Shown piece by piece: positions 16,628 through 17,305 of a stretch of DNA of 64,000 bases. The notes under the pieces are model-generated. The model was given only the letters and a program-made list of their open reading frames with translations, searched no databases and was not told the DNA's origin. Origin of the DNA: Candidatus Moraniibacteriota bacterium (GTDB taxonomy: Bacteria; Patescibacteriota; Minisyncoccia; Moranbacterales; UBA2206); the NCBI GenBank assembly GCA_049304095.1, contig JBAQNU010000024.1:11893-75892 (forward strand). The letters run 5' to 3'. A program made the translations under genes and the position numbers. Positions within the stretch are counted from its first letter, which is position 1. The number at the start of each line of letters is the position of its first letter.

Positions 16628-17305
16628 TTGAATAAACTGCACACGATTATGCTAACAAAAGGAACCAAAAAATCATTCTCAGAAGAAGCCAAACGACAGC
16701 TTGCGTTGGTAAATAAGAGCATTGGAAACTACGGCAAACCAATCCGTGGCAGATATCTTACGTTATATCACGGAACCAATAGTCGGAACCTGGAGAAAAT
16801 TCTTAAAGAGGGGATAAAGCCAAGAGGCAAACACAAATCCAACTGGGAAAGTGGTATTGGAATATCCAGAAATGACTTGGTGTATTTGACCTACTGTTAC
16901 GCTTGTTACTTTGCGTCTGCTTCTTGCAAGAAGAAGGGCGATGTGCCAGTTATTATTAAACTAAAAATAGACACTAAAAACACAGAACTATTCCCAGATG
17001 AAGAGTTTATTTTCAGAGCCTTACATAAAGCTGGCGAGGGGTTAGACCATAAAAAAGCGGTGATGATGTATAATAAGATTGACCCTCGAAAATATGATGG
17101 CAAGAAATATTGGGAAGCCAGTCTGAAATTTATGGGTACGGTTTGTGCAGAGTATATTCCAGTGGGAAGTATCGTGGGGTATGCTGAGGGAAACTCTTCA
17201 GAATTTATGAAGAACTGTGACCCTTCCATTTCTCCCATAAATTATAAAATAATGTCTGCCAGCTATATTGATTATCTGGAAAGTTTGGATTATAAACAAG
17301 TATAG
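16628..17305 (+). CDS. ADP-ribosyltransferase-fold protein resembling the KptA/Tpt1 catalytic domain
   Basis: LTLYHGTNSRNLEKILKEGIKPRG matches the KptA block [25 protein letters not shown]. It lacks the KptA N-terminal domain. Confidence 0.45.
   Translation: MNKLHTIMLTKGTKKSFSEEAKRQLALVNKSIGNYGKPIRGRYLTLYHGTNSRNLEKILKEGIKPRGKHKSNWESGIGISRNDLVYLTYCYACYFASASCKKKGDVPVIIKLKIDTKNTELFPDEEFIFRALHKAGEGLDHKKAVMMYNKIDPRKYDGKKYWEASLKFMGTVCAEYIPVGSIVGYAEGNSSEFMKNCDPSISPINYKIMSASYIDYLESLDYKQV

Follow-up and report, generated by a model that had tools for sequence, protein, structure and literature searches.

A predicted stand-alone ADP-ribosyltransferase carried as cargo in an integrase-associated slot of a Candidatus Moraniibacteriota bacterium

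The ART gene and its reading frame

We have examined a 64,000-nucleotide (nt) stretch of DNA from a Candidatus Moraniibacteriota bacterium (assembly GCA_049304095.1, contig JBAQNU010000024.1, positions 11,893 to 75,892 of the forward strand; hereafter, the window), focusing on a gene whose product is predicted to adopt the ADP-ribosyltransferase (ART) fold. The gene lies in a region rich in mobile and defence genes, with five tyrosine recombinases, two TerL-like ATPases, a Toprim primase-like protein and a Dam-type methyltransferase. Its open reading frame (ORF) runs uninterrupted on the + strand from a TTG at 16628 to the stop codon at 17305 and encodes 225 amino acids (aa), while an alternative in-frame ATG at 16649 gives a protein of 218 aa, whose numbering is used here for conserved residues and strands. 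A GAGG motif is located 5 nt ahead of the TTG, which is overlapped by a promoter-like -10 box, and several homologues also start with MNK. The identical 218-aa protein is deposited at NCBI as "hypothetical" (P0001) in metagenome-assembled genomes (MAGs) of Candidatus Moraniibacteriota, and in a second assembly of the same locus (L171) the 225-aa form was called together with two small downstream genes that encode acidic peptides. The uninterrupted frame and these two sets of gene calls confirmed the existence of the stand-alone ART-like ORF proposed in a preliminary description of this DNA.

Fold and resemblance to characterised ARTs

An AlphaFold2 model of the protein, built from an alignment of 31 homologues, reached a mean predicted local distance difference test score (pLDDT) of 93.7 and a predicted template modelling score (pTM) of 0.89. 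When this model was compared with the PDB using Foldseek, the top matches were KptA/Tpt1, DarT1 (with the highest template modelling (TM) score, 0.42), TreX and PltA. The assignment to the split beta-sheet ART fold rests on this structure model. Predicted strands cover residues 36-44, 78-81, 100-108, 114-116, 164-167 and 175-180, with H41 (in LYHGT) on the first and Y79 (in VYLT) on the second, as expected for the pocket that binds nicotinamide adenine dinucleotide (NAD+). Ahead of strand 1 there are only ∼35 residues with a single helix (residues 4-27), and the N-terminal lobe of Tpt1 is absent; most family members begin directly at strand 1. Two insertions were apparent, one of 15 residues after helix 1 and a helical one of 45 residues between strands 4 and 5. 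The D117-E118 pair follows strand 114-116, and the later strands (164-167 and 175-180) start with G-T-V. By the predicted strand order, the canonical strand-5 position appears to be Thr/Val, as in Tpt1, rather than Glu, and the placement of the D-E pair would recall Tpt1, whose third position is non-acidic.

At the sequence level, the block LTLYHGTNSRNLEKILKEGIKPRGKH (residues 44-69), which the preliminary description had likened to the catalytic segment of KptA/Tpt1, aligns with the Tpt1/KptA NAD lobe. The window protein matched Pfam PF01885 with an E-value of 0.0074 (16.8 bits; cut-off, 26 bits) and the NCBIfam model of RNA 2′-phosphotransferase with an E-value of 3.6e-4 (20.1 bits; cut-off, 231 bits). 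Tpt1 chains of the PDB were found at 0.023 from the single sequence and at 2e-4 to 8e-4 from a family profile, and hhalign against four Tpt1 NAD lobes gave a probability of 96.4% over 26 alignment columns, corresponding to strand 1 and helix 1. By these four comparisons, the match to the Tpt1 motif is real and above chance, yet short. A broader family profile aligned with Escherichia coli DarT1 across 70 columns (E-value 2e-3). The description thus held both in its fold, borne out by the model and the Foldseek matches, and in its picture of a Tpt1-like NAD motif lacking the RNA-binding N-lobe, given the single helix before strand 1. It had also raised the doubt that the gene might be a truncated housekeeping kptA. 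We rejected this possibility, because the protein shares only 26 alignable residues with Tpt1 and belongs to a large, uniformly single-domain, phage-borne family.

Size, conservation and distribution of the family

When 1.84 billion cluster representatives (clusters at 50% identity) were searched exhaustively with a profile, at least 2,176 family representatives were found at E ≤ 1e-3; of these, 1,307 scored E ≤ 1e-10 and 228 scored E ≤ 1e-30. Single-domain proteins of 180-250 aa make up almost the entire family. Nearly all of the best 150 of these 2,176 representatives are 180-290 aa long, the domain accounting for the whole protein. Across 69 diverse members, H41, G42, T43, Y79, D117, E118 and G163 were invariant, and all of them are kept in the window protein; Y40, P58, R59, N65, W66, S73, Y84, P116, D119, S158, N198 and Y206 were nearly invariant. 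None of the 69 members scored above a Pfam threshold, with sub-threshold matches to PARP in nine and to Tpt1 in nine. Of the 69, 61 matched phrog_13493 and 26 matched phrog_11974, both phage families of unknown function. A second large protein search returned 207 further proteins, all unnamed and none with a Pfam domain. The family is a distinct, uncharacterised branch of the known ART superfamily for which Pfam holds no model.

Structural relatives among viral models included multiple paralogues of Bacillus phage G and proteins of Vibrio phage nt-1. The phage G paralogues fit the report that this phage encodes at least 10 ARTs, made in a study in which phage ARTs were found to be widespread and mostly fast-evolving, conflict-related proteins (PMC9503650). 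A tblastn search for relatives in cultured phages gave a single weak match, in Vibrio phage 6E35-1b (7e-4), and a scan of GTDB genomes with a peptide pattern gave none. Fusions to other domains were occasionally observed. In L165, a Ga0315279-type metagenome contig of 1,793 nt, an N-terminal Ser_hydrolase domain (PF06821) and the ART form a single 423-aa ORF that the gene caller had split (P0006). Two other relatives (P0042 and P0235) carry an N-terminal SprT-like zincin (HExxH), detected below threshold, ahead of the ART; the pairing of a zincin with an ART is a hallmark of effectors delivered with invading DNA (PMC5512222).

The genomic contexts of relatives were compared at 37 loci by BLAST clustering of the four genes on either side and by a Pfam scan of 128 neighbours. 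Distant members reside in bona fide phage genomes, many of them of lytic type, within replication and early regions. One gene (P0028) is located between terminase, portal and capsid genes and a module of Pyr_excise, primase-helicase, CTP_transf_like, Tet_JBP and ParB_N genes; in Pam3-like phages, another (P0032) is next to genes for an AEP primase and UvrD; and two more (P0008 and P0019) lie among DHFR, HNH and LAGLIDADG endonucleases, RNase T and inteins. P0024 and P0025 belong to arrays of small genes with ArdC-N, DUF3846, DUF2958, WGR, bpMoxR/VWA and a PD-(D/E)XK nuclease, in early, anti-restriction regions of mobile elements. The remaining contexts included positions downstream of a type III restriction-modification operon (P0002), downstream of HD, nucleoside deoxyribosyltransferase-like and Ham1 genes (P0003) and upstream of Fic (P0014).

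The ART gene occupies an integrase-associated cargo slot

Two copies of a 23-nt direct repeat bracket the ART gene and both peptide genes (Table 1). An exact 15-mer of this repeat occurs at these two sites only in the 64 kb, against 0.03 occurrences expected. A 16-nt core, TCCCACGAATCACCTC, recurs in other contigs as direct repeats that bracket single cargo units: the ART in the window, NYN and AbiE in L048 (three copies on the - strand, at ∼2848-2866, 1981-1995 and 234-248) and a reverse transcriptase in L069 (259-274 and 2947-2962). Elsewhere the same slot contains + strand genes that differ from locus to locus, one of them a relative 52% identical to the window ART. Close homologues of Int1, the tyrosine recombinase at the upstream end of the slot, are found upstream of the same core and the adjoining conserved element in L154, L082, L076 and L104; cargo follows the integrase in L154 and L082, while in L076 and L104 the integrase gene lies directly against the element and the slot is empty. 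Beyond the integrase, no similarity was found between the window and L154. The varied cargo, the bracketing repeats and the integrases together indicate that the ART gene is exchangeable cargo of an integrase-associated slot, which makes more precise, and supports, the mobile islet in which the preliminary description had placed it.

Simple insertion between two repeats accounts for this arrangement in part. The model is incomplete because the conserved element already includes the stretch that immediately precedes the right repeat (17841-17919), as seen in L048 and L076. The cassette array also looks different from integron attC architecture. Judged by integrase orientation and boundaries, it does not qualify as an integron gene cassette: the integrase is co-oriented with the cargo, and in place of attC-like palindromes there are direct repeats of 16-23 nt beside a 16S-trailer-like element.

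The downstream end of the slot is marked by a conserved non-coding element that copies the last ∼13 nt of 16S rRNA, ATCACCTCCTTTCT, followed by the trailer. A conserved stretch of ∼230 nt is present at 17934-18162 and in a second copy in the window at 53271-53510 (this copy being listed as 53257-53510 overall). The same element directly follows bona fide 16S genes in two Moraniibacteriota contigs (L047 and L049). Orphan copies preceded by the core are found in two Moraniibacteriota MAG contigs (L048 and L050) and in ∼18 metagenome contigs, downstream of variable accessory genes and often near tyrosine integrases. RNAalifold applied to the two window copies predicted 52 pairs, 8 of them with compensatory changes; Rfam contained no family for this 16S-trailer-like element.

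Two further structured segments were detected at the left end of the slot. A hairpin with a U-run has a counterpart at the left end of the NYN cassette of L048 (2712-2752, - strand; -19.8, z -4.7), where the outer stem, read by eye, is CCCGU/GCGGG instead of the CCUGC/GCAGG of the window, one compensatory change. This hairpin, shared by the left ends of two unrelated cassettes, may be a terminator, an insulator or an element of the 5′ untranslated region. The second is a tRNA-like segment of 113 nt just after the integrase gene, with a 7-bp acceptor-like stem and a folding energy of -44.5 kcal/mol (z -3.55). Rfam recognised in it only the T-arm of tmRNA (E-value 4.5e-4) and ARAGORN was negative; neither program found a tRNA gene anywhere in the window, and no copies of the segment were found in other loci. 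A tRNA or tmRNA gene as integration site was consequently discarded, as the two programs point to no gene, only to a fold bearing a T-arm.

Table 1. Features of the ART locus (window coordinates) and cargo of the same slot in other contigs
Feature	Position	Strand	Description
Tyrosine recombinase Int1	15301..16212	+	Pfam Phage_integrase, 2.3e-37; upstream end of cargo slot
tRNA-like structured segment	16389..16501	+	Acceptor-like stem GUGGAGG/UCUCCAC and perfect T-arm GGGGGUUCGAUUCCCCC
Left copy of 23-nt direct repeat (core)	16513..16535	+	CATCTCTTCCCACGAATCACCTC; 21/23 identical to right copy
Hairpin and U-run, terminator-like	16556..16594	+	UUCG loop; left cassette end; -18.6 kcal/mol, z -3.9
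Predicted stand-alone ART-fold protein	16628..17305	+	225 aa (TTG) or 218 aa (ATG 16649)
Invariant ART residues (218-aa numbering)	H41 16769-16771; Y79 16883-16885; D117-E118 16997-17002; G163
Promoter-like site	17353..17381	+	TTCAAA-17-TATAAT, ahead of peptide genes; consensus match only
Acidic peptide 1, Asp/Gly/Asn-rich	17430..17543	+	37 aa, behind Shine-Dalgarno AAAGGAGGTGA; called in L171; no Pfam match
Acidic peptide 2, Asp/Gly/Pro-rich	17584..17679	+	31 aa, behind GGGAGG; no Pfam match
Intrinsic-terminator-like hairpin	17728..17749	+	Predicted end of peptide transcript
Conserved non-coding element	17841..18162	+	5′ extension, core, last ∼13 nt of 16S rRNA, ∼230-nt trailer
Right copy of 23-nt direct repeat (core)	17920..17942	+	CATTTCCTCCCACGAATCACCTC; leads into conserved element
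Second tyrosine recombinase	18558..19442	+	Pfam Phage_integrase, 7.6e-30; just downstream of element
Slot cargo, L048 and L145			AbiEi/AbiEii (L048 also NYN)
Slot cargo, L069			RVT_1 reverse transcriptase
Slot cargo, L120			Fic
Slot cargo, L050			GNAT-ANT(2′′) and Ser_hydrolase
Slot cargo, L154			AAA_14/DUF4143
Slot cargo, L165			Ser_hydrolase-ART fusion, 52% identical to window ART

Absence of a conserved partner

The preliminary description had regarded the ART as a possible DarT-like toxin and the adjacent acidic peptides as its possible partners. Both peptides are low-complexity and very acidic, each is preceded by a strong Shine-Dalgarno sequence, and they are the sole ORFs of this kind in the window. 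However, no acidic small ORF was found downstream of the ART in 8 homologue loci; in L165 only 16 nt separate the end of the ART ORF from the conserved core, and peptide genes are absent there. The peptides were rejected as conserved partners on these grounds. More generally, neither the clustering at the 37 loci nor the Pfam scan of the 128 neighbours revealed a conserved neighbour beyond closely related phages, and a conserved neighbour or antitoxin was likewise rejected. PADLOC returned 0 families at E ≤ 1 for the window ART, and the DarT model PF14487 matched neither the window protein, searched at E ≤ 10, nor any of the 69 members, searched at E ≤ 0.01. The DarT-like toxin of a toxin-antitoxin pair and the peptide partners were therefore the parts of the description that found no support, in contrast to the fold, the motif without N-lobe, the distinction from kptA and the islet. 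Its remark that no macrodomain antitoxin was apparent did hold: none was found among the neighbours of the ART gene in the window, and neither macro nor NADAR was present among the 25 most frequent neighbour families listed for 26 non-redundant relative loci.

In two marine phage lineages a gene for a protein of 160-165 aa comes directly after the ART homologue (6607-7089 in L008, L009 and L010; 6758-7255 in L011 and L012). The products have similar N-termini by eye, and Pfam called Pyr_excise (T4 endonuclease V-like) in L008, L009 and L010 only. A Pyr_excise-like downstream gene was the only hint of a recurrent neighbour that we found; it was not general in other loci and was not retained.

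These results bear on the possibility of a two-part defence module in which the ART is the toxin, or an effector of abortive infection, and one or both acidic peptides neutralise or regulate it. Pairings of an ART toxin with an antidote, as in DarTG and ParST, are common, the slot elsewhere holds AbiE, a reverse transcriptase and Fic, and here it adjoins OLD, HEPN and helicase-nuclease genes; moreover, the peptides look like real genes and share the repeat-bounded cassette with the ART. On the other side stand the lack of an acidic peptide or any other conserved partner beside the 37 relatives, the peptide-free arrangement in L165, the promoter-like site and terminator that the peptides have of their own, the lack of a PADLOC match and the many family members in lytic-type phage genomes. 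Overall, we consider a two-part module unlikely.

Other features of the window

A run of defence-type genes at 6846-15228, with xseA and xseB in between, lies upstream of the islet. It comprises a 1,197-aa superfamily 1 helicase with a C-terminal MTES_1575/RAP nuclease (6846-10439), an OLD/GajA-like ATPase-Toprim nuclease (10622-12598; PADLOC Old, 7.7e-59) and a 249-aa HEPN protein (14479-15228); the XseA of the window has an N-terminal HRDC domain. LOOT RNA (RF03000) is present in two + strand copies, at 3818-3940 and 30653-30779 (101.6 and 87.8 bits). Each copy is located just downstream of a gene for a 283-aa tyrosine recombinase, within duplicated modules (56-5057 and 26928-31801) that also carry a 512-aa TerL-like ATPase. 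These modules, 26.8 kb apart, may be two related satellite-like or prophage-like elements. Finally, a 67-nt repeat occurs in three copies (starting at 57497, 58925 and 59750) in the region 57443-59826. The copies start with TTGACC or TTGACT, lie within a 131-nt two-copy repeat, and are intergenic, ahead of + strand ORFs.

Discussion

Taken together, sequence conservation and the structure model suggest, with a probability that we put at about 60%, that the gene encodes a catalytically competent, single-domain NAD+-binding enzyme of the ART fold that serves as a stand-alone conflict effector of phages and mobile elements. An active enzyme is favoured by the conservation of the NAD-pocket residues, by the strictly kept acidic pair, by how large and diverse the family is and by the intact gene at this locus. 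That no conserved partner was found, that relatives live in phages and mobile elements and that some are fused to a zincin all speak for an effector that works on its own in conflict, rather than for the toxin of a toxin-antitoxin pair. Such an enzyme would bind NAD+, release nicotinamide and attach ADP-ribose to one of the opponent's macromolecules in conflicts among phages, mobile elements and hosts, and would act alone, without a dedicated antidote. Because the family is mainly borne by phages and mobile elements, counter-defence or host takeover is at least as likely as host defence. As for the target, we lean to a nucleic acid (a base or a terminal phosphate) over a protein, though at less than even odds: the nearest relatives, Tpt1/KptA and DarT, act on nucleic acids, members recur in replication, repair and nucleotide-metabolism modules, and strand 5 appears to offer Thr/Val.

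Several observations weigh against this interpretation. The likeness of the family to characterised ARTs is remote, with TM scores below 0.45 and sequence matches in the first one or two motifs alone. In the predicted strand order the D-E pair follows strand 4 instead of standing at the start of strand 5. The closest structural matches include protein-targeting toxins (TreX and pertussis-like), and the isoelectric points of the family are scattered from 4.7 to 9.5 (median 6.8), so that they provide no general signature of nucleic-acid binding; deducing such binding from charge was therefore rejected. A rare macro or NADAR neighbour could be missed when the 25 most frequent Pfam families are considered. 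Finally, the neighbours of the slot and the equivalent cargo in this host are of defence type, and a host-protective role is possible.

The family differs from Tpt1/KptA in lacking the N-terminal winged-helix RNA lobe and, because that lobe is absent, the Arg-His catalytic pair; in having an invariant Tyr on strand 2, a position at which the NAD lobe of Tpt1 carries the His of its invariant VH[LV]S motif; in the two inserts and the invariant D-E pair; and in scores far below the Pfam and NCBIfam cut-offs. With DarT it shares a stand-alone size of ∼200 aa, the H and Y motifs, the longest profile alignment and the top Foldseek score, but it has no PF14487 match, most of its members are phage-borne and, unlike in DarTG, there is no adjacent macrodomain or NADAR in the window or among the recurrent neighbours (the 25 most frequent families) of the relatives' loci. 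In TreX and TreTu the ART is the C-terminal domain of a secreted Rhs toxin that has its cognate immunity protein, whereas the window ART has neither Rhs context, nor an immunity gene, nor detectable sequence similarity to them. Like the ARTs of polyvalent proteins (Tox-ART-HYD2) and T4 Alt, ModA and ModB, the family is borne by phages and mobile elements and is predicted to act on host macromolecules with no antidote. Its occasional fusion to a zincin-type metallopeptidase and its co-location with ArdC-N further recall polyvalent proteins (cf. PMC5512222), although it has no ART-PolyVal match in Pfam and is nearly always a free single domain, not part of a giant multidomain protein. Alt and Mod are R-S-E enzymes, while this family has H and Y. 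AcrIF11 is, similarly, a small stand-alone anti-CRISPR ART of phages and plasmids, enzymatic and without a partner. By analogy, then, the stand-alone effector that we favour would resemble phage Alt/Mod, AcrIF11 or polyvalent-protein ARTs more than a toxin of a toxin-antitoxin pair.

A different use of the same fold would be the consumption of NAD+ (as NADase or NAD+ phosphorylase) or non-catalytic sensing of NAD+ or ADP-ribose, instead of transfer to a macromolecule. NAD+ is degraded by some ART-fold proteins, for example those of the RES/MbcT type; the window protein shows no evident domain for recognising a target, and putative CTP_transf_like genes resembling those of nicotinamide mononucleotide adenylyltransferase are nearby in two phage contexts. 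Yet a phage has no obvious gain from NAD+ depletion, and the ∼100 conserved residues beyond the NAD core, among them the helical insert of 45 residues and numerous invariant aromatics, suggest a surface for a specific substrate, making this explanation quite improbable. The protein could also be a minimal RNA-repair enzyme, that is, a Tpt1/KptA-like 2′-phosphotransferase or an enzyme capping 5′-phosphates with ADP-ribose that dispenses with the RNA lobe. Five residues ahead of the strand-2 Tyr there is usually an Arg, recalling the catalytic Arg of the Tpt1 NAD lobe, which precedes the strand-2 His by four residues; the residue at the strand-5 position seems, like that of Tpt1, to be non-acidic; and phages carry KptA for tRNA repair (PMC9503650). 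Nevertheless, the protein lacks the N-lobe, which in Tpt1 supplies the Arg and His of the catalytic tetrad, the family has Tyr where Tpt1 has its invariant strand-2 His, the scores remain at 16.8 against 26 bits in Pfam and 20 against 231 bits in NCBIfam, and neither an RNA ligase nor a 2H phosphoesterase was seen among the relatives' neighbours; we regard RNA repair as very unlikely. Modification of a small molecule, such as antibiotic inactivation in the manner of the rifampin ADP-ribosyltransferase Arr, is barely credible: the slot in L050 does hold GNAT, aminoglycoside-2′′-adenylyltransferase-like and Ser_hydrolase genes, and a hydrolase of that type is fused to the ART in L165, but most relatives are located in phage replication modules, where resistance is an unlikely trade, and there is no sequence similarity to Arr.

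The stand-alone effector and the slot can be combined into a broader proposition, which as a whole we hold to be rather doubtful. The family would be a new class of partner-less nucleic-acid ARTs, with a Tpt1-like NAD lobe, a lost RNA lobe and a substrate module of their own, and would serve phages and mobile elements as a weapon or as a means of marking DNA or RNA that belongs to them. In Moraniibacteriota, the gene would travel as a cassette bounded by repeats, on a cargo platform not described before: an Int1-type tyrosine recombinase would insert genes of conflict, such as those for ART, AbiE, reverse transcriptase, NYN and Fic, at the core that abuts the duplicated copy of the 16S rRNA 3′ end and trailer.

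ADP-ribosylation, a weapon that phages and bacteria turn on each other again and again, has targets as different as DNA (DarT), mRNA (CmdT), RNA polymerase (Alt/Mod) and Cas8f (AcrIF11). The family described here comprises more than 2,000 clusters, has no Pfam model and no studied member, and is found in phage replication modules and in the entry regions of mobile elements. Identification of its target would add a substantial piece to the picture of ADP-ribosylation in phage conflict, and would show whether a Tpt1-type NAD lobe works on nucleic acids without the RNA-binding lobe. The ART family is an uncharacterised branch of a known superfamily. The cargo slot is newly delineated, and the setting of the gene exposes a recombination slot that exchanges defence-type cargo in bacteria of the candidate phyla radiation, organisms with small genomes whose mobile elements and immune repertoire are poorly known.

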